Assembly (NCBI GenBank): GCA_040387015.1
Contig: JAZKEP010000132.1
Location: forward strand, 3,261 to 48,148
Length of the DNA: 44,888 nt
Origin: Bacteroidota bacterium
GTDB lineage: Bacteria; Bacteroidota; Bacteroidia; Chitinophagales; LD1
Direction of reading: 5' to 3'
The notes under the pieces were generated by a model. That model searched no databases. It had not been told where the DNA came from and saw nothing but the letters and a program-made list of their open reading frames with translations. Position 1 is the first letter of the stretch; each line of letters begins with the position of its first letter. Position numbers and translations under genes: made by a program. Positions 5,460-26,049 of this stretch are shown piece after piece.

Positions 5460-5795
5460 TCAACGGGAAATTTCTATCAAATCGTTTTCTTCCAAAAACT
5501 TTATGGCATTCGTTAAATCTTTTTTTAGGATTTCTTTCATCCTGTCATTAGAACAGTTCCCGAAGGTGAGCCAAATAACTTTCGGTGGTGATTTTAAGCG
5601 ATTCAATAAATCGGAGAAATCTTCATCTTTAGTGATGATAACCACATCCCCTTTTAATTTAGCGGCAGTAAAAATTTCTTTATCGCTGGCATCGCGGAGT
5701 TTTAAATCGCGCACTGCGTAACATTCAAATAAAAATTCTTCCTGAATCCATCTCGCTATCAGAGGTGAGATATGAGCATCTAACCAAAGTTCCAT
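5460..5795 (-). CDS. DUF5615 family PIN-like toxin (VapC45-like)
   Basis: LWLDAHISP, DASDKEIF, IITKDEDF and PPKVIWLTFGN motifs. Start overlaps the stop of the DUF433 gene. Confidence 0.88.
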   Translation of the reverse strand: MELWLDAHISPLIARWIQEEFLFECYAVRDLKLRDASDKEIFTAAKLKGDVVIITKDEDFSDLLNRLKSPPKVIWLTFGNCSNDRMKEILKKDLTNAIKFLEENDLIEISR

Positions 5796-6022
5796 CAGGC
5801 GGCCTTAAGAAAGGGGAAGTTGGCTCTGCTTGCTGCAAAAAGCAAACATGCTTTGATGTCGTCCGCTTCTAAATCGGGATGTTCTTCTAGTATTTGCTGT
5901 TGGCTCATTCCCGAAGCAAGAAGTTCTAATACATCTACCACACGAATACGCATTCCGCGAACACATGGCTTGCCGCCACACTTGTTCTGCTCAGAAGTAA
6001 TTCTTGAAAGTAATTCGTTCAT
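5795..6022 (-). CDS. DUF433 family antitoxin (VapB45-like)
   Basis: RITSEQNKCGGKPCVRGMRIRVVDVLELLASGMS...HPDLEADDIKACLLFA. Start re-assigned to ATG 6022 (75 aa). Confidence 0.9.
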   Translation of the reverse strand: MNELLSRITSEQNKCGGKPCVRGMRIRVVDVLELLASGMSQQQILEEHPDLEADDIKACLLFAASRANFPFLKAA

Positions 6023-6026
6023 GAAT

Positions 6027-6034
6027 CGAAAATA
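6027..6034 (-). promoter_or_regulatory. Putative Bacteroidota -7 promoter element (TATTTTCG) for the TA operon
   Basis: Near-match to TAnnTTTG, 4 nt upstream of ATG 6022. Confidence 0.5.
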
Positions 6035-6073
6035 AGTAAAAACGTGTTCAGTTTCTTCTTTCTTCAATCCGAT

Positions 6074-6102: not shown

Positions 6103-7344
6103 ATGATTCAACTCAACAACGGGGTTTATGAAATTGGCGGAATTCCGGTTTCGCAATTGGCGGCTAAATACGACTCGCCTCTTTACGTGTACGACACGGG
6201 TATTATGGAAAGACAATACAATCTGCTGAAGGATGCTTTCAGCGGAACTAATTGCAGAATAAAGTTTGCCTGCAAAGCGTTGAACAATATCAATGTGCTC
6301 AAGTTCTTCAATAAGATAGGAGTGGAGTTGGATACTGTTTCTATTCAGGAGGTATGGACCGGCTTGCGCGCAGGTTTCGACCCCAAGAAAATTCTTTACA
6401 CCCCTAACTGCGTTTCGATGGAAGAGATTGAACTGGCAGTGAAAGAAGGCGTGCAGATAAACATTGATAACATTTCTATCCTCGAACAATTTGGTCACAA
6501 GTATGGCTCAAGCATTCCGGTTTGCATCCGCATCAATCCGCACATTATGGCGGGAGGCAACGAAAAAATTTCTACCGGTCATGTGGATTCCAAATTCGGA
6601 ATTTCTATTTACCAGATGCGCCATTTAGAGCGCGTAGTGAAGAGCGAAAAAATTCGTGTGAATGGCTTACACATGCACACCGGCAGCGATATATTGGATG
6701 TGGATGTGTTCCTCCGCGCTTCCGAAATTCTTTTTGAAGCAGCCGAACAATTTCCCGACCTGGAGTTTCTTGATTTTGGCAGCGGCTTTAAAGTGCCTTA
6801 CAAGCCCGATGATTATTACACCGATGTAAAAGATTTAGGCGCGCGCCTAACGCCCCGCTTTCAGGCCTTCTGCAAAAAATACGGGCGCGATTTAGAGTTG
6901 TGGTTCGAGCCGGGAAAATTCTTAGTGAGCCAGAGCGGAACTTTTTTGGCTAAGGTGAATGTGATTAAGCAAACCACCTCCGCCATGTTTGTAGGGCTTG
7001 ACTCGGGCCTTAATCATCTCATCCGCCCCATGATGTATAACTCTTACCATCACCTGGTAAATATTTCCAACCCTGCGGGCGTGCAGCGCATTTATACCGT
7101 GGTGGGCTACATCTGCGAAACCGATACGTTCGGCTGGGACAGAAAACTAACCGAGGTGCGCGAAGGCGACATCATCGCTTTTCAAAATGCGGGCGCTTAC
7201 GGCTTTAGCATGTCATCTAATTACAACTCACGTTTCCGCCCTGCCGAGGTGCTGGTGCATAAAGGCAACGATTACTTGATACGCAAGCGCGAAAACCTCG
7301 AAGACCTGCTGAGAAATCAGGTGGAAGTAGAAGCGTTCGGTTAA
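6103..7344 (+). CDS. lysA: Diaminopimelate decarboxylase
   Basis: FACKAL (PLP lysine), SKFG, HMHTGS, DFGSGF, EPGKFLV, GYICETDTF and GAYGFSMSSNYNSRFRPAEV motifs. Confidence 0.96.
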   Translation: MIQLNNGVYEIGGIPVSQLAAKYDSPLYVYDTGIMERQYNLLKDAFSGTNCRIKFACKALNNINVLKFFNKIGVELDTVSIQEVWTGLRAGFDPKKILYTPNCVSMEEIELAVKEGVQINIDNISILEQFGHKYGSSIPVCIRINPHIMAGGNEKISTGHVDSKFGISIYQMRHLERVVKSEKIRVNGLHMHTGSDILDVDVFLRASEILFEAAEQFPDLEFLDFGSGFKVPYKPDDYYTDVKDLGARLTPRFQAFCKKYGRDLELWFEPGKFLVSQSGTFLAKVNVIKQTTSAMFVGLDSGLNHLIRPMMYNSYHHLVNISNPAGVQRIYTVVGYICETDTFGWDRKLTEVREGDIIAFQNAGAYGFSMSSNYNSRFRPAEVLVHKGNDYLIRKRENLEDLLRNQVEVEAFG

Positions 7345-7350
7345 TTCTTT

Positions 7351-7437
7351 GGCGTTCCCCCGCTCAAAGCAGCGGGGTCGGGCTTTCACTCCAATTCCCG
7401 CAGAAACTGCGGGAGATTTCCGTTCAATCCCTAACGC
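7351..7437 (+). ncRNA. Structured RNA / interspersed repeat resembling the Flavo-1 motif
   Basis: Closing helix GCGTT(7352-56)/AACGC(7433-37), hairpin CCCCGCT-caaagc-AGCGGGG and hairpin TCCCGCAG-aaa-CTGCGGGA. The segments GGTCGGGCTTTC and CAATCCCTAACGC match my recollection of a Bacteroidota intergenic element. The family name is from memory, not a search. Confidence 0.55.
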
Positions 7438-7456
7438 AAACAGCCAATACAAAATC

Positions 7457-7488
7457 CAACCCCGCGTAAATGCGGGGTTGTTTGTTTT
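7457..7488 (+). terminator. Intrinsic terminator downstream of lysA and the structured element
   Basis: CAACCCCGCG-taaa-TGCGGGGTTG stem followed by TTTGTTTT. Confidence 0.8.
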
Positions 7489-7649
7489 ACGTTATCACCC
7501 AATCCTAGACCACACCCGGCTAAGCAGGAAGAACCGGCAGGATTAAAATGAGCAGCCGCACCTTCTCATCTTTTCTTCTTGTTTTTCCTTTAAGTGCTCC
7601 TGGTTCTTGAAACCTTTTCAAGAATAATTTATACTCCTGCTTCTTTTTT

Positions 7650-7859
7650 GTAATCCTTATTGATAGATTTATAAATGCTTATTCTATTTTAAAAAATTCT
7701 TATTTTCAAAATTAGAGTAACAATTTTATGATGTAGAGTAAGAATTTCTGTTTATAGTATAAAAATTCAAAATAATAAAATAATGATTTTAGAAAATAAG
7801 ATAATCATTCAGGATTTATAAATGAGTATTTTCTTATGTAAAATAATTACCCGAAAATT
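7650..7859. repeat. Degenerate AT-rich tandem array with 21-bp period (about 10 units)
   Basis: ATT occurs at 7681, 7702, 7723, 7744, 7765, 7786, 7807 and 7828. TAnnnTAA occurs at 7713, 7734, 7755, 7776, 7797 and 7839. GATTTATAAATG occurs at 7666 and 7813 (147 = 7x21 apart). Confidence 0.75.
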
Positions 7860-7936
7860 TTATAAACACCAATATAAGTCGTAATATTGCTTATTACAGC
7901 TTAAAAAAAAGCTTTTTATACCTAAAACACTGCTTT

Positions 7937-8608
7937 ATGGCAACCGATTACATTCCTAGAAAGATAGCAGAGTTCAATACATTTCAGCTTAATCTGGTTA
8001 AAGCAGTGGCTGACAATGGCGCAAGTTGGAATATTCCTGCGGAAGTGGTAACCGCCTGGACGGCAGAAGCCGCTGCTTACAAAACTGTATATACAACACA
8101 GACGAATAAGGCGGCAAGAACGACCGTAGATGTGCGCATACATGCTGAGTTTCGCAAGGAATACGAAATGAAAATACGCCTTTGGGTAAATGCTTATGTA
8201 AATGGCAACATGGCCGTATCGCCCGTAATAAAAGACACCCTCGGGCTTAAAAAGCGCGGCAAAAAGCGCAACCATCGCGGGCGTATTACCGCTAATATTC
8301 TGTTTACGCTCGAGCCGCTGCGGGGTGGCAGGGTGCGTATTATCTGTCGCGAGCCCGAGCACCGGGGCCGTGCGCGCCTGCCACACGACAGCGATGGCGT
8401 GGAACTGCGCTACGCCATAGGCACCAAACCCGAACATTCCGAAACGCCCTCTGTTACCCGGCATTTTAGCTCTACTGCCAAATTACTGCTCGACCTCGGA
8501 ACGGCTAACATAGGCAAGTATTTTTATGTGTTTGTTCGCTGGCGCAACCTTCGCCACGAAGAAAAAAGCGGCTCCTGGAGTGCCATGCAGGAAATGATGA
8601 TTGCGTAG
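7937..8608 (+). CDS. Hypothetical protein: helical N-terminal domain, basic linker and beta-sandwich (Ig/FN3-like) C-terminal domain
   Basis: 223 aa with no signal peptide. Has an N-terminal DYIP...F motif, a KKRGKKRNHRGR linker and a C-terminal YVFVRWRN...SGSWS resembling the FN3-like 'G.WS' ending. Confidence 0.8.
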   Translation: MATDYIPRKIAEFNTFQLNLVKAVADNGASWNIPAEVVTAWTAEAAAYKTVYTTQTNKAARTTVDVRIHAEFRKEYEMKIRLWVNAYVNGNMAVSPVIKDTLGLKKRGKKRNHRGRITANILFTLEPLRGGRVRIICREPEHRGRARLPHDSDGVELRYAIGTKPEHSETPSVTRHFSSTAKLLLDLGTANIGKYFYVFVRWRNLRHEEKSGSWSAMQEMMIA

Positions 8609-8691
8609 GCGCAATTGCATTCAGTTATTTTTTAAAAAATTTCTTTACGAAAAGTATAGAGCTATTTTCATAGCCAATTCAAAGCTCGCCC

Positions 8692-9627
8692 ATGAAATTC
8701 TTCAAAAGCAAAACCTTCCTCGTTATCGCTTTTATTTTAAGCGCATGGATTCTCGCCAACATCATTTTATATGAACCCGATATTGCGGTTGAAAAGCTGA
8801 AAGAAAAATACACCACTGCCGCTTCAAAGTTTATCGAAGTTGACGGCATGCAGGTGCATTACCGCATCCAGGGCGAAGGCGAGCCGCTTGTGCTCATACA
8901 CGGCACAGGTGCCATGCTTCAAACCTGGGATGAATGGACGAACCTCCTCAGCCCGCACTACAAAATTATCCGCATGGATATTCCTGCCTTTGGCTTAACC
9001 GGTCCGCGTGCCGATGGAGTTTACAGCGATTCGATGTATGTAAATTTTATAGAGCAGTTTGTAAGCAAGATTGGCGTTGATTCGTTTTACCTCGGGGGAA
9101 ATTCCTTAGGCGGATTAATTGCCTGGAAATATGCCGCGGCCTATCCCGGCAAGGTAAAAAAACTGGTGTTGGTTGACCCTGCCGGCTTTCATGGGTTTAA
9201 TGATAAAGGGGGCTCGTTCATCTTTAACTTATCCCGCAATTTCCCAACGCTTACTTCTATGGTTTCGAAAATAGGAACGCACTATTTCGTAGAGCATACA
9301 CTCACCGAAGTTTATTCCGATGATTCAAAAATTACGGATAAAGAAAAGATAATGTATGCCGAGTTGAACAGGTGCCAGGGCAACCGCCACGCATTTATAC
9401 AGCGTGCTAAATACACACACAACTGTAGCGAAGAAGAATTAAGCGCCATTACTGCACCCACTTTAATCATGTGGGGTAAAGAAGATGTGTTGATAGATGT
9501 GCGCGAAGCAGCGCATTTTAAAAAGATAGCTAACGCTTCGCTTGTAGTGTATGATAACATCGGCCATTGTCCGCAGCAAGAACTCCCCGAACGCTCCGCT
9601 GCCGATGTAATGAGGTTTTTGAAATAG
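8692..9627 (+). CDS. Alpha/beta fold hydrolase with N-terminal membrane anchor
   Basis: LIHG oxyanion motif, GNSLGG nucleophile, WGKED acid and GHCPQ histidine. Confidence 0.92.
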   Translation: MKFFKSKTFLVIAFILSAWILANIILYEPDIAVEKLKEKYTTAASKFIEVDGMQVHYRIQGEGEPLVLIHGTGAMLQTWDEWTNLLSPHYKIIRMDIPAFGLTGPRADGVYSDSMYVNFIEQFVSKIGVDSFYLGGNSLGGLIAWKYAAAYPGKVKKLVLVDPAGFHGFNDKGGSFIFNLSRNFPTLTSMVSKIGTHYFVEHTLTEVYSDDSKITDKEKIMYAELNRCQGNRHAFIQRAKYTHNCSEEELSAITAPTLIMWGKEDVLIDVREAAHFKKIANASLVVYDNIGHCPQQELPERSAADVMRFLK

Positions 9628-20493: not shown

Positions 20494-21147
20494 ATGAAAC
20501 TCACCATCCGATGTTTAAGTCTGCTCCTTCTTATTTCGGTTAAATCAGTTAGCACAGCGCAGGATTTTATTCTTGATAAAAACGGCAGAGAGGAGAAAGT
20601 GCGGATATTGGGCATGAATGAACGTAAAATTGAGTTTAGAAATTACAGACAACCTTCATTTGACCACCGCACTTTTGGTTATAAAAAAGTAAACGCGCTG
20701 GCCATTAAATATGAAAACGGTTCAATTGTTAACGGGCACGGACTGCCCATTACAAATGAAAATTACGATTATATAAAACACAATGCACTCAGTAAAACAT
20801 ATTTTAAAAAAGGCATACCTGCTCTTTGCTTTGCGGGTACTTTCGTAATTGCAGGTATTAGTTTATTAGGCTATGGTTTAAATGCAAAACGGGAATTAGG
20901 TAAAAATCCTGAATGGGATCAGCGTAGCGCAAACTATCTTATCATTTCCGGGGCATGTACCATCATTCCTGCAATTCCGTTAGGTATTGTTGGTTCAGTG
21001 CTGACATTTAGAGGTGTAAAAAGCAGAAAAAAAGCAGACGCTTTAAAACCTTCCGTCAGTTTTAGTCCTTTAATAGGCCCGAATATCGATTACAGCGGAC
21101 AGGCAGTAAATTTTAAAACCGGTTTAACTACAACTTTTATTTTTTAA
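20494..21147 (+). CDS. Hypothetical exported/membrane protein
   Basis: Signal peptide, two hydrophobic Gly-rich helices and a C-terminal Phe. Confidence 0.75.
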   Translation: MKLTIRCLSLLLLISVKSVSTAQDFILDKNGREEKVRILGMNERKIEFRNYRQPSFDHRTFGYKKVNALAIKYENGSIVNGHGLPITNENYDYIKHNALSKTYFKKGIPALCFAGTFVIAGISLLGYGLNAKRELGKNPEWDQRSANYLIISGACTIIPAIPLGIVGSVLTFRGVKSRKKADALKPSVSFSPLIGPNIDYSGQAVNFKTGLTTTFIF

Positions 21148-21171
21148 AACTTTACCCTTTCCCAGCATACA

Positions 21172-21606
21172 ATGAAAGCCAAACTGTTTTTGTTTCTACT
21201 TATTATATCAGGCTTTAGCGGTTGTAGAAAACTGATAAATATCGATTCGGATTATGTAGGCGTGTGGCGCGGAGGATACTATGGCAGTAGGTACTATAAA
21301 CTAAATATTACTGAAGATGGCGGTGCAGAATACGAGCGGAAATTCCAGGGAGGTGGTCCATCACAATATGGTTATGAGCGTTGGTACGGTCCTTTAAAAT
21401 CGAACGGCAGGCGTTTTCAAATTGCATATTCAAGCCCGTGGTTTATTATTATTGAAAATCCCGTGCTTACAAACGATGACTGCCGATCTCTGTTTTTTAG
21501 TTCGGATAGCACCTATTTAAAGAACAACTGGAGGATAAAATTTAAATATCCAAAAACCATTGGTTACGATGGTGCTGAAGTGGTTATGTACCGTCATCAG
21601 TTTTAG
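21172..21606 (+). CDS. Hypothetical lipoprotein
   Basis: MKAKLFLFLLIISGFSGC lipobox-like signal, followed by YVGVWRG (lipocalin-like GxW). Confidence 0.75.
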   Translation: MKAKLFLFLLIISGFSGCRKLINIDSDYVGVWRGGYYGSRYYKLNITEDGGAEYERKFQGGGPSQYGYERWYGPLKSNGRRFQIAYSSPWFIIIENPVLTNDDCRSLFFSSDSTYLKNNWRIKFKYPKTIGYDGAEVVMYRHQF

Positions 21607-21760: not shown

Positions 21761-21974
21761 GCCTTTAGGGAAGACTTCAGTGTCTTTAAGGTTGACCCGG
21801 GAGCCTCTAAGTATGACTCTGGAACCTCTAAGGTTGACTCCGGAACTTCTAAGTATCACTCCGGAGCATCTAAGGTTGACTTGGGAGCCTCTAAGTATGA
21901 CTTCGGAACCATCCTTTTGAGAAAATGATTGCTCCGAAGTCGACCTTAAAGACACTGAAGTTTTACCTAAAGGC
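21761..21974. repeat. 214-bp element: about 44-bp terminal inverted repeats enclosing a 21-bp tandem array (MITE-like, non-autonomous)
   Basis: Left end GCCTTTAGGGAAGACTTCAGTGTCTTTAAGGTTGAC matches the reverse complement of the right end, GCCTTTAGGTAAAACTTCAGTGTCTTTAAGGTCGAC, at 33/36. Units start at 21766, 21787, 21808, 21829, 21850, 21871 and 21892. Confidence 0.9.
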
Positions 21975-22076
21975 GGTTTTGTGACAAATATTGTCGGTTT
22001 CTAACTCAATGATGGTTTTCTACTAGAAACTAGATTGGAAAGGAACCAACCCGAAGGGCTCTTTAAGCTTATAGGT

Positions 22077-23431: not shown

Positions 23432-24820
23432 CTATTCTTTAATCAATTTTACAGAAGAAGTTATTCCGCCTGCTTTAATTGCCAATAAATAAAATCCCGA
23501 AGGCAGGTTGCGGAGTGATAACTCTGTATTTGCATTTTTAAAATGCCTGATTAATTGCCCCACTTCATTATACAGGGTTGCGCTTTCCACTTTGCCGCTT
23601 CCAGCATCAATTCTGAAACTATTGGCCACAGGATTAGGATAGACTTTAACCGCATCTGCTTTTACTTCTACTGCTCCGGTATTTATCCGGGTAATTCCCA
23701 ACGCACTATCAGCATTCAGCACAAACAGACCGTTTTGCATATCAGCGACAATAATGTGCTTACTGGGCAGCTGCGTATAAGCACCCCAGGCCCCCGCGAA
23801 TGAACCAACAGCGGAATCAGTGGCTGTTTGGTAGTGGGTGTCAAAATAGCCTGTTCTTATTGGCGATGCAGGGTTTGTAAAGTCAAAAATTTGCAGTCCG
23901 TCTTCATAATAAGCAATGGCAACGTGGTTGTTATCGCACAAAAACGGATTGTGCGGAGTTGCCAGAGAACCACTGGAGAGGGTATCAATCACTTCCAAAT
24001 CATTAGGGCTGTTAATTCGTACCGACTTAACCGGAAGCCCTTCCGGAACTTCATCCAACATTACTAGATGATTTCCGTCTGCTGCTAAACAAGAGCTATG
24101 GTTATATCCCTGAAAAGAATATTGGGTTAACGAGCCAATCAGTTGAAAGTGATTAGCAGTATCTAAGTTGAAAACGTGTAGACCATCGTAGCCACAAGAA
24201 GCATAAATAGTATCGTTCTGTACAAACATATCATGAACGTTTCCGGTTATAGACCCGTAATCCTGCTCTAGCTTTCGAAGTAAAACAGGCAATGCAGGAT
24301 TGTCTAAACTGTATACGGACATAGCGGACTTTTGTCCATTCCCAAAAGTAGTGGCTCCGGAATAGAGCTTATCTCCATCAATAAAAATGGTATGGCTTTG
24401 CTTAAAAATGGTGGCATCATCGTAAACGACCACCGCGCTATCCGGTAGAAAAGATAAATCGACAATCTGCAGGCTATTAACTACCGGGTCATCGCTTACC
24501 ATGTAAACATAATGCTGATATACTTTATACTCTCTCCATGTGCAGCCGTTTCTTCTTCCGTAAATACGGGCAATACGCACAGGTAGATAAGGATCCGTAA
24601 TATCTATGATATGCAATCCATTTTCTGCACCCAAAAGAGCGTATTCACGACCATTTGAAGCATATCCCCAAATTCCGGAATAGCGGCTGCCAACCTGCGA
24701 TAGAACGGTAATAGTGGTATCATCCCAACGACTTAGTAGTTCAATTTTCTCATGGTCATAGTTTTGTGCCCATACATGAGAAGAGTAAAGGCAGCAAATG
24801 ACGAGGAGGAGTTTTTTCAT
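23432..24820 (-). CDS. Choice-of-anchor B / LVIVD-repeat beta-propeller protein with T9SS type A C-terminal domain
   Basis: Signal peptide, SGIWGY..NGREYA, TWREYK, YNHS, TPHNPF and GAWGAY motifs. CTD is VYPNP...LPSGFYLL...KLIKE. Confidence 0.88.
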   Translation of the reverse strand: MKKLLLVICCLYSSHVWAQNYDHEKIELLSRWDDTTITVLSQVGSRYSGIWGYASNGREYALLGAENGLHIIDITDPYLPVRIARIYGRRNGCTWREYKVYQHYVYMVSDDPVVNSLQIVDLSFLPDSAVVVYDDATIFKQSHTIFIDGDKLYSGATTFGNGQKSAMSVYSLDNPALPVLLRKLEQDYGSITGNVHDMFVQNDTIYASCGYDGLHVFNLDTANHFQLIGSLTQYSFQGYNHSSCLAADGNHLVMLDEVPEGLPVKSVRINSPNDLEVIDTLSSGSLATPHNPFLCDNNHVAIAYYEDGLQIFDFTNPASPIRTGYFDTHYQTATDSAVGSFAGAWGAYTQLPSKHIIVADMQNGLFVLNADSALGITRINTGAVEVKADAVKVYPNPVANSFRIDAGSGKVESATLYNEVGQLIRHFKNANTELSLRNLPSGFYLLAIKAGGITSSVKLIKE

Positions 24821-24828
24821 GGAGTCAT

Positions 24829-25782
24829 TTAAAAAACTGCTTTCGCAATCTCTATTGTAGCTTCACTCCGGCTCATGGTGTAGTAATGCAGGCAAGGAAC
24901 ACCTGCAGTCTTCAGTTCTTTCGATTGCTGAATAGCCCATTCAATACCCACACGCTTTACCGCTTTATCGTCCTTACAGTCTTCTACTGCTGAGGCTAAA
25001 TCTTCCGGAATATCAATGTGAAACATTTTTGGGAGTACAGAAAGTTGCGATTTAGTGGCAAGTGCTTTTAAGCCCGGGATAATAGGAACATTGATTCCCA
25101 TAGCGCGGCATTTCTCAACAAACTCAAAATATTTTTTGTTGTCGTAGAACATCTGGGTAACAATATAATCGGAGCCTTGGTCAACTTTATGCTTCAGCCA
25201 TTTCATATCGGTATTCAGGTTAGGCGCTTCGAAATGTTTTTCGGGATAGCCTGCTACGCCAATACAGAATTGTGTTTTCAATTCATTCTCGGTTTCCTCA
25301 TGCAAAAATTTTCCTTTATTCATATTAGCTACCTGATGAACCAGGTCGCAGGCATATTTGTATGCCGAGGGCTTAGCGGGAGTTTTGGGATTCTTATCCT
25401 GGTCGCCCTGCAAAAGCAAAAGGTTGTTAATGCCGAGATAATAAAGAGTGAACAAAGCATCCTCGGTTTCTTCAGGGGTAAAGCCCCCGCATACAAGGTG
25501 AGGTACGGTATCTACATTGAACCTTCCTTTAATAGCCGCACAAATGCCCACCGTGCCGGGACGCTTGCGCAAAGGCACTTCCTCCACCAAACCGTCAGGC
25601 CGCTTTTTATAAATAATCTCTTCGCGGTGATAAGTCACATCAATAAAAGGCGGTTTGAAATCCATTAAAGGCTCAATCACTTTCAACAAATCATCAATCG
25701 TCTTTCCTTTTTGCGGAGGAAGAACTTCTATGCTGAAAAGTGTATTGCCATTTGCTTTGGCGAGATGTTCGGTAACTTTCAC
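24829..25782 (-). CDS. metF: 5,10-methylenetetrahydrofolate reductase
   Basis: FSIEVLPP, FIDVTYH, VPHLVCGG, GVAGYPEKH, VTQMFYDN and LHYYTM motifs. GTG start. Confidence 0.95.
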   Translation of the reverse strand: MKVTEHLAKANGNTLFSIEVLPPQKGKTIDDLLKVIEPLMDFKPPFIDVTYHREEIIYKKRPDGLVEEVPLRKRPGTVGICAAIKGRFNVDTVPHLVCGGFTPEETEDALFTLYYLGINNLLLLQGDQDKNPKTPAKPSAYKYACDLVHQVANMNKGKFLHEETENELKTQFCIGVAGYPEKHFEAPNLNTDMKWLKHKVDQGSDYIVTQMFYDNKKYFEFVEKCRAMGINVPIIPGLKALATKSQLSVLPKMFHIDIPEDLASAVEDCKDDKAVKRVGIEWAIQQSKELKTAGVPCLHYYTMSRSEATIEIAKAVF

Positions 25783-25849: not shown

Positions 25850-25868
25850 CCCTGCTCTTTGAATAAAT

Positions 25869-25980
25869 CGTTATCAAGAAAGACCGAGGGACAGGCCCGT
25901 TGAAGTCTTGACAACCACTCCGCAGCAATGTGGGGCAGGTGCCAAATCCTGCTCTGATTTTTTATCAGAGATAGATAAGT
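25869..25980 (+). promoter_or_regulatory. SAM-I (S-box) riboswitch
   Basis: P1 TTATC/GATAA, then AAGAAAGAC-CGAGGGACAGGCCCGTTGAAGTC (P2/kink-turn), CAACC...GGTGCCAAATCC (P3) and CTCTGAT/ATCAGAG (P4). Lies upstream of metH. Confidence 0.93.
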
Positions 25981-26049
25981 AGAATTTATTTTCTTCTTCC
26001 TTCCCAATTTCTTGAAAGCGAACTACAAAGACAAAACTTGTATTGTCTA

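Follow-up and report, generated by a model that had tools for sequence, protein, structure and literature searches.

In a Bacteroidota genome we find a phased array of 21-bp DNA units upstream of a gene for an undescribed protein, and the two belong together: array and gene form a recurrent module, the pairing of which is not due to chance. The gene encodes a protein of 223 amino acids (aa) and lies at positions 7937-8608 (+ strand) of a 44,888-nucleotide (nt) stretch of contig JAZKEP010000132.1, hereafter the window, from an assembly of 3.84 Mb that is 92% complete (GCA_040387015.1). The array is an AT-rich, non-coding run of about ten degenerate 21-bp units at 7640-7860. What is new is the near-obligate link of such arrays to one undescribed protein family, the reach of this link into other phyla, and the presence of regulator genes across the arrays; the array-gene linkage points to an unusual mode of control of this gene family. 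A full-text literature search, seen at the level of titles and abstract openings, returned no paper dealing with this protein family or with arrays of 21-bp period in Bacteroidota.

The periodicity of the window array was assessed by its self-identity at fixed lags. Identity at lag 21 across 7650-7859 was 0.524, compared to 0.354 in 500 dinucleotide-preserving shuffles (z 5.4), and lag 42 gave z 4.0, relative to a 95th percentile of 3.1 for the best of 45 lags in the shuffles. The initial annotation had described a 7/21-bp periodicity: the 21-bp period holds, while no 7-base period is present in 7650-7859 (z 0.15 at lag 7 and z 0.67 at lag 14), so that the period of STRR-like heptamer repeats is absent. 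Set in rows of 21, the array resolves into about ten units from around 7642 to 7860, with the common columns ..TAAnnATTT(T/C) and the ends ..ATT|T; the core is loosely palindromic (AAATnnnnATTT), and the best dyad of the unit forms 6/8 pairs. The array is degenerate, because Tandem Repeats Finder sees just two short fragments in it (7681-7711 and 7769-7784), and its phasing ranks near the bottom of the family (z 5.1; the 42 further positive loci described below have 5.2-19). Its GC content is 0.16-0.18; values over 7575-7949 are 0.16-0.25, compared to 0.45-0.63 within the 223-aa gene, in line with the earlier remark that the gene is visibly the more GC-rich, and the lag signal confirms that the periodicity stops 77 nt before the ATG. 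No open reading frame (ORF) of at least 50 aa crosses the array on either strand. A coding heptad repeat was dropped, as the array has no open frame, and a CRISPR-like array was dropped, as there are no spacers. Four DNA runs gave only contigs that resemble the source and short stretches from relatives, and the array showed no length variation in them; a look-up of RNA data for 7350-8700 gave no entry.

The link between array and gene was evaluated at all family matches from the genus search that had usable flanks, with gene starts placed by the family hidden Markov model. Three loci with too little upstream DNA were dropped and five duplicate fetches removed; each of the 48 unique loci had at least 150 nt of upstream sequence, and a locus was called positive when the strongest lag among 5-49 was 21 or 42 with z≥5. 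An upstream 21/42-bp array was present at 43/48 loci (42/45 within the genus and 1/3 outside it), a count that includes one pair of recent duplicates as well as relatives that are not independent. Three of the five misses are borderline (L033, 4.9; L015, 4.7; L044, 4.2), and the other two, L012 and L016, show nothing. By comparison, none of 50 loci reached z≥5 at lag 21 (z21) in the 300 nt downstream, where the maximum was 3.2. The genome background is 74/2744 genes with z21≥5 upstream (2.7%; ORFs of at least 100 aa), and 6-11% among genes with an upstream gap of at least 300 nt. Thus, because the homologs do carry associated periodic flanks, the array-gene module proposed in the initial annotation is real.

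The arrays of the family have 3-14 units, with a median of 9, and a GC content anywhere from 0.14 to 0.60. The median position of their ends is -67 relative to the ATG (interquartile range -98 to -44, n=40), which leaves room for a promoter. At the window locus a candidate Bacteroidota-type -7 promoter box, TAATATTG, can be read at 7882-7889 (+), one mismatch away from TAnnTTTG, the -7 promoter consensus of Bacteroidota. In the ortholog of the closest relative genome (G006), the position aligned to this box reads TAATGTTG and a TTTG lies about 20 nt upstream; another array-fronted family of the source genome has TAnnTTTG-like boxes between array and ATG. A conserved leader motif, TTTTTATACCTAAAAC, occupies 7913-7928 (+), 8 nt before the ATG, and by eye, without a count, motifs of the same TTTTTTAACCnnTAAAAC class can be seen at many of the 48 family loci, 10-30 nt upstream of the start codon. 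Since TTTTTTAACCnnTAAAAC-type motifs also precede 17 of the 2670 genes of the genome that lack an array, one of them with a TAnnTTTG box further upstream, the motif is probably a leader or translation-start signal of the lineage.

The link is also seen, with weaker phasing, in distant relatives. Six metagenome relatives, 22-28% identical, lie on contigs of 40-64% GC. They supply four independent loci that could be tested, of which three have 55-64% GC. In these four, the strongest 21/42 signal is just upstream of the gene, with maxima per scanning window of 5.5, 5.6, 8.9 and a weak 4.5; planctomycete-type cytochrome domains are encoded by a gene that flanks one of the loci. Atlas clusters of the family include members from Spirochaetota, Bacteroidota and Verrucomicrobiota. 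The source genome is placed in Bacteroidota by neighboring genes of T9SS type, the Flavo-1-like RNA match described below and the Atlas taxa. Three paralogs are present in the source genome, the family occurs in 15/36 other genomes of the genus with up to eight matches per genome, and in an even draw from the phylum it was found in 3/401 genomes, the source genome among the three; the mention in the initial annotation of paralog families in Bacteroidota and spirochaetes is borne out. No match was obtained when genome contigs were searched with the distant member P0060, or viral contigs with the query.

The units of the family arrays look like sites for dimers on duplex DNA. Their best dyads form 5.77/8 pairs on average, compared to 4.97 in shuffles (z 7.1), and at least 7/8 pairs are formed in 23% of the units, compared to 3.7% in shuffles; several are loop-less perfect palindromes. 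A gene for a small helix-turn-helix (HTH) regulator lies directly across the array in 12/48 loci. It is a GerE/LuxR-like gene, upstream on the same strand, in 8/48 loci, including the C151 paralog locus of the source genome, a divergent XRE HTH gene in 3/48, and a LytTR gene in 1/48 (L038). At the C151 locus the array lies at 24705-24890 and the GerE-like gene at 25031-25447. The three locus pairs with GerE-like proteins 51-57% identical have the most similar arrays of 21 pairs (16, 14 and 12 matches of 21, the 12 being tied by one other pair). Similarity of the family protein, in contrast, is not followed by the arrays, as detailed below. In addition, a 12-bp core of the GAATAnnTATTC type is found in six loci of one subgroup, with proteins only 35-39% identical to the query and with different contexts, and this recurrence across diverged proteins and contexts argues for constraint on the core. 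LytTR-type sites are 9-bp direct repeats with a 12-bp spacer, i.e., they have a 21-bp period; the family units are enriched in inverted repeats, and the LytTR gene is confined to its one locus of the 48.

We tentatively favor a reading in which a dimeric HTH regulator that controls the promoter of the gene docks on the array, a phased platform rich in palindromes, while the protein is the output and not the binder. The array would act as a cis-regulatory platform in double-stranded DNA, with the 223-aa protein as the regulated product. About ten units, two helical turns apart and hence all on the same side of the helix, would stand just upstream of the putative promoter, each with its loosely palindromic core, and a dimeric HTH regulator of the GerE/LuxR, XRE or LytTR type would bind them cooperatively and set the transcription of the gene. 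This regulator would be the one encoded across the array in a quarter of the family loci; at the window locus, where the array is the most decayed one in the family, it may act in trans or may have been lost. A likeness is offered by the tandem operators of Cro/CI-type repressors (lambda OR/OL) and by further multi-site operators that small HTH dimers bind, which also have palindromic units in tandem upstream of a promoter (putative here), a same-face spacing that suits cooperativity, and a small HTH gene across the repeats, as in our three divergent XRE and eight same-strand GerE-like loci. The family arrays are unlike these operators in having 3-14 units instead of three and a period of strictly 21 or 42 bp, in that the window locus has no regulator gene, and in that many arrays of unrelated sequence occur per genome.

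The 21-bp array is not private to the 223-aa family. In the source genome, Tandem Repeats Finder reported 210 rows of period 21 and 119 rows of period 42, which were merged into 158 arrays of at least 84 nt, and an independent lag-21 scan gave 124 segments covering 25 kb, compared to three genes of the family. Periods of 63 and 84 were also reported, along with 86 rows of period 7 and 54 rows of period 14, which may be heptamer-type repeats. The units of these arrays are nearly all different, and only groups of two to four loci have a common unit. By gene context, with crude gene calls that miss genes under 100 aa, 94 arrays were classified as 51 co-directional, 22 divergent and 21 convergent, compared to 413, 192 and 150, respectively, of 755 gaps of at least 150 nt. 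The 74 array-fronted genes of the genome are a non-random set. Array-fronted are 3/3 members of the 223-aa family, 4/4 and 5/5 members of two small HTH families (HTH_26/HTH_3 by Pfam), 3/4 of a 223-232-aa family, 3/3 of a 321-353-aa family and 18/33 of an unannotated protein cluster, some with a C-terminal CarboxypepD_reg beta-sandwich; examples of array-fronted genes are C35:107839-108261, C92:8010-9095, C77:10048-10746 and C44:108066-109040. Comparison of the family to eight other array-fronted clusters by hhalign gave a best probability of 15%, so that no kinship with them is detectable.

The window itself contains a second 21/42-bp array at 21761-21975 (unit TGACTCCGGAGCCTCTAAGTA; Tandem Repeats Finder score 178, period 42). 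It had been annotated at 21761-21974 and is real, with a lag-21 z of 12.3. About seven direct units are followed by two inverted copies, so that the ends pair; the array lies between convergent genes with no family gene adjoining, and a related array is found at C106:1315-1416 in the same genome. A block of two genes with signal-peptide-like starts (217 aa and 144/149 aa) stands just before it, at 20494-21606. In G006 the same block (L078:911-2038) is inverted and directly precedes the family array, a rearrangement with both ends at arrays.

Several points weigh against a regulator platform. No cognate HTH regulator gene is present at the window locus, where the neighbors are lysA and a hydrolase gene, and at 36/48 family loci no regulator gene lies within ~1 kb of the array. 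Because array sequences are nearly all different, the platform reading needs many regulators or a fast re-matching of regulators to sites. The arrays spread like intergenic space, with 21/94, about a fifth, between convergent genes, where a promoter would not be expected, as against 150/755 of the gaps, and thus are not tied to promoters as a class. When palindrome centers were placed relative to the ATG or the AAYC anchor, modulo 21 and 10.5, the best uncorrected p was 0.03 of 12 tests. In addition, the tracking of arrays by GerE-like proteins comes from three related loci that share ancestry, a small sample, and the promoter at the window locus is placed by a reading of the sequence.

The diversity of the arrays bears on a different reading, in which the period is selected and the words are not. 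The array would then be a sequence-independent structural element, either DNA made curved or superhelical by its in-phase bends or a place where a shape-reading nucleoid protein lands, and it would boost or insulate the promoter. Twenty-one is the smallest whole number of base pairs that gives whole turns at 10.5 bp per turn. Consistent with this reading, one period runs through 124-158 arrays of unrelated sequence, the family arrays range widely in GC, and period and position are kept where sequence is not, so that even close paralogs have unrelated units: in twelve pairs with N-terminal domains 60-82% identical, the units match at 10.1/21 positions on average, compared to 9.3-9.4 in unrelated pairs. 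However, the palindrome excess and the adjoining HTH genes point to sequence-specific dimers, the units are alike within an array, and the GAATAnnTATTC-type core recurs in loci with diverged proteins. We consider it unlikely that the arrays act by shape alone.

A broader proposal, and a quite unlikely one in our judgment, takes the array-gene unit as a self-contained module kept across phyla. The array would be a two-turn, sequence-free repeat platform that is continually rewritten with its period held, and cargo families, the helical-FN3 family and the other array-fronted ones, would assemble on this platform or be switched by it. If true, such a module would constitute a chromatin-like or enhancer-like control layer not described in bacteria.

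The properties of the protein bear on whether it could itself be the reader of the array. The stand-alone 223-aa gene is real: a HMMER search of 1.84 billion cluster representatives gave 520 relatives at E≤1e-3, nearly all of 220-245 aa, with the family consensus DYIP..F..Q..L...NA..W.IP ... RW.N...SGPWS, and the AlphaFold2 model of the query has a mean predicted local distance difference test score (pLDDT) of 95.3, with helices at residues 10-27, 35-56 and 63-88 and seven strands within 122-221. The helical N-terminal domain and the Ig/FN3-like C-terminal domain of the initial annotation are both found in this model. The N-terminal domain (residues 1-105; 7937-8251, +) is predicted from models and family consensus to be a three-helix bundle with a DYIP...F motif, and reaches a pLDDT of 90.6 when modeled alone. 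It resembles only generic bundles (Z≤8.2, below the bar for helical proteins; none by Foldseek at E≤1e-3), and no HTH, ribbon-helix-helix or winged-helix match was found in it. The C-terminal domain (residues 121-223 with the stop; 8297-8608, +) ends in the motif RWxN...SGxWS and has the seven-strand sandwich of FN3 topology; it aligns to the FN3 domain of PTP-delta with a VIA-align Z of 11.3 (root-mean-square deviation 2.2 Å over 96 residues), and Foldseek returned 26 matches in the PDB at E≤1e-3, almost all of them FN3 domains or receptor ectodomains. The protein is thus like FN3 proteins (PF00041) in the fold of this domain. It is unlike them in that it has no Pfam sequence match, in its fusion to a family-specific three-helix bundle, and in belonging to a multi-copy family of single genes without an evident signal peptide.

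By sequence, PF00041 was found in 0/102 aligned family members at E≤0.01, and the query itself had no family in Pfam (E≤0.1), NCBIfam, PHROG (E≤0.05) or PADLOC (E≤0.01). One weak Pfam match each (E 0.00045-0.01), to three different unrelated families, was obtained for 3/102 aligned relatives, and in one nearby Atlas cluster fn3 is assigned to 18% of the members. A phage structural gene was dropped from consideration in view of the PHROG result and the lack of matches in viral contigs; by PADLOC, no anti-phage defense protein model matched the query. A reading of the polar N-terminus of the 223-aa protein showed no evident signal peptide. The linker between the domains (KKRGKKRNHRGR; 8252-8296, +), where pLDDT dips to 83-88, had been described as very basic; this is so in the query (net charge +8) and its close subfamily, and is not a family trait (median +2). 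The family is mostly basic overall, with a median isoelectric point of 9.4. Identity to the closest relatives is 74-78% for the family protein, as against 97-98% for lysA. Between close paralogs, divergence is faster in the FN3 domain than in the helical domain (identity ~0.5 compared to ~0.8; e.g., 0.48 and 0.82), a pattern typical of a binding module that diversifies on a conserved anchor. We infer a non-secreted product with a structural or binding role, in which the helical part is the conserved anchor and the FN3 module diverges fast.

The suggestion of the initial annotation was that the protein itself lines its array, as a filament with an autoregulatory or nucleoid-like function. The tight cis-linkage, which holds even where no regulator gene is nearby, the window locus included, would fit this suggestion, as would the basic character of the family and the persistence of the link in distant lineages. 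However, no DNA-binding fold was found in the protein, the basic linker is not conserved, N-terminal domains that are 60-82% identical go with unrelated arrays, and arrays vastly outnumber the family genes. These results make self-binding very unlikely.

Two systems in which a protein is encoded beside the repeats that it binds were compared with the window locus. Plasmid iterons and their Rep proteins (R6K, RK2, pSC101) share the ~20-bp direct repeats in helical phase beside a gene, with an array sequence specific to each replicon as ours is to each locus, and the window array does consist of tandem direct repeats within the 17-22-bp range in helical phase (z 5.4). Unlike iterons, the window locus is chromosomal and lies between housekeeping genes, with several copies per genome and no replication genes nearby; no Rep-like or winged-helix fold was indicated among the listed matches, in which the protein has no Pfam, NCBIfam or PHROG family and its N-terminal domain is closest to generic helical bundles. 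Repeated centromeres (the 43-bp palindrome repeats of F sopC with SopB, ParR/parC, StbA/stbS) likewise have tandem units of fixed length with an inverted repeat, and their binding partner is a small DNA-binding dimer whose gene adjoins the repeats. No ParA/ParM-type NTPase, ParB, ParR or StbA-like protein was found at the window locus or in the flanks of the 48 loci.

We also considered that the arrays have no function and are lineage-wide minisatellites, generated by slippage or by a length-measuring process, that pile up in long, weakly constrained spacers before young, fast-evolving genes. The arrays are distributed like intergenic DNA in general, and the family is both patchy and fast-evolving. 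Consistent with this, the window and G006 arrays are identical at 149/220 positions (68%), compared to 65-72% at third codon positions; identity in the promoter-proximal 85 nt is 76%. Conversely, the two orthologous arrays align over 327 columns without a gap and keep the same register and core, the frequency of 43/48 far exceeds the 6-11% of genes with long upstream gaps and has no counterpart downstream, and arrays also front the relatives in high-GC lineages. We give a neutral satellite a very low likelihood.

The genomic setting of the window array was examined in relation to the cassette that the initial annotation had placed between lysA and the hydrolase gene. Upstream of the array lies lysA (6103-7344; Orn/DAP decarboxylase domains), and a pattern scan found a terminator-like hairpin at 7457-7480 (+), with a 10-pair stem containing seven G-C pairs and followed by TTTGTTTT, which would mark the end of the lysA transcript 5' of the array; a sigma-70 promoter scan, the model of which is ill-suited to Bacteroidota promoters, was used for the terminator call only. 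Downstream of the 223-aa gene is an alpha/beta hydrolase gene (8692-9627). This arrangement exists in the source genome only. In G006 the order is lysA, a hicBA-like pair, two further genes, the array and the family gene, i.e., four other genes separate lysA from the array, and in ten other species neither the family gene nor the hydrolase gene lies within 3.4 kb of lysA. Because only lysA is common to these ten species, no clean insertion borders can be drawn.

The idea that array and gene form a mobile or recombining cassette, with the array as a site of recombination or rearrangement, is consistent with gene contexts that differ between genomes, with the occurrence of same-unit arrays at two to four loci, and with the two-gene block that has moved between the second window array and a family array in the closest relative. 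Against this, genes for recombinases, integrases or transposases were not seen next to the loci, no target duplications or defined ends were found, and the single pair of recent duplicates has 1.67 kb in common and not a neat cassette, which makes the idea highly improbable. Barely credible, finally, is a role of the array at the RNA level, with its transcript acting as a small RNA or a leader of tandem hairpins to which the protein binds, as the initial annotation had also suggested: palindromic units could fold as hairpins, but the fold of the window array has a z of -1.9 with 12/200 shuffles as good, no Rfam covariance model matched 7640-7936 at E≤1, and the arrays have many loop-less palindromes, with no strand bias for G/C (GC skew 0.005) and just a slight excess of A over T (AT skew 0.065, p 0.03).

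Other features were noted around the locus. Five partial copies of the GC-rich hairpin segment that follows lysA (7345-7500) occur at other places in the genome, and metagenome contigs contain parts of this segment with other flanks; within the segment, 7372-7449 (-) gives a full-length, sub-threshold match to the Rfam Flavo-1 RNA (36.2 bits; gathering score 42; E 5.5e-6). Just upstream of lysA, at 5460-6067 (-), is a DUF433/DUF5615 (PIN-like) gene pair that resembles a toxin-antitoxin module, and the hicBA-like pair of G006 stands at the matching side of lysA. A S-adenosylmethionine (SAM) riboswitch (RF00162, 75.3 bits) is located at 25868-25981 (+).

A bacterial promoter is usually controlled through between one and three operators. 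In the case described here, phased units of constant length and free sequence, 3-14 in number, stand before an entire protein family and, in the source genome, before several further unannotated families and small HTH regulators as well. The named gene families and the three-part C151 locus, a clonable unit of GerE-like gene, array and family gene, make the genome-wide 21-bp arrays testable. Action by shape alone would make the arrays one of the rare cases in which selection works on the geometry of DNA and not on its sequence. If they are regulator platforms, as we tentatively propose, the pairs of regulators and sites of an uncultured lineage could be read from them as a natural catalog, and they would serve as a model of cooperative control from one face of the helix.

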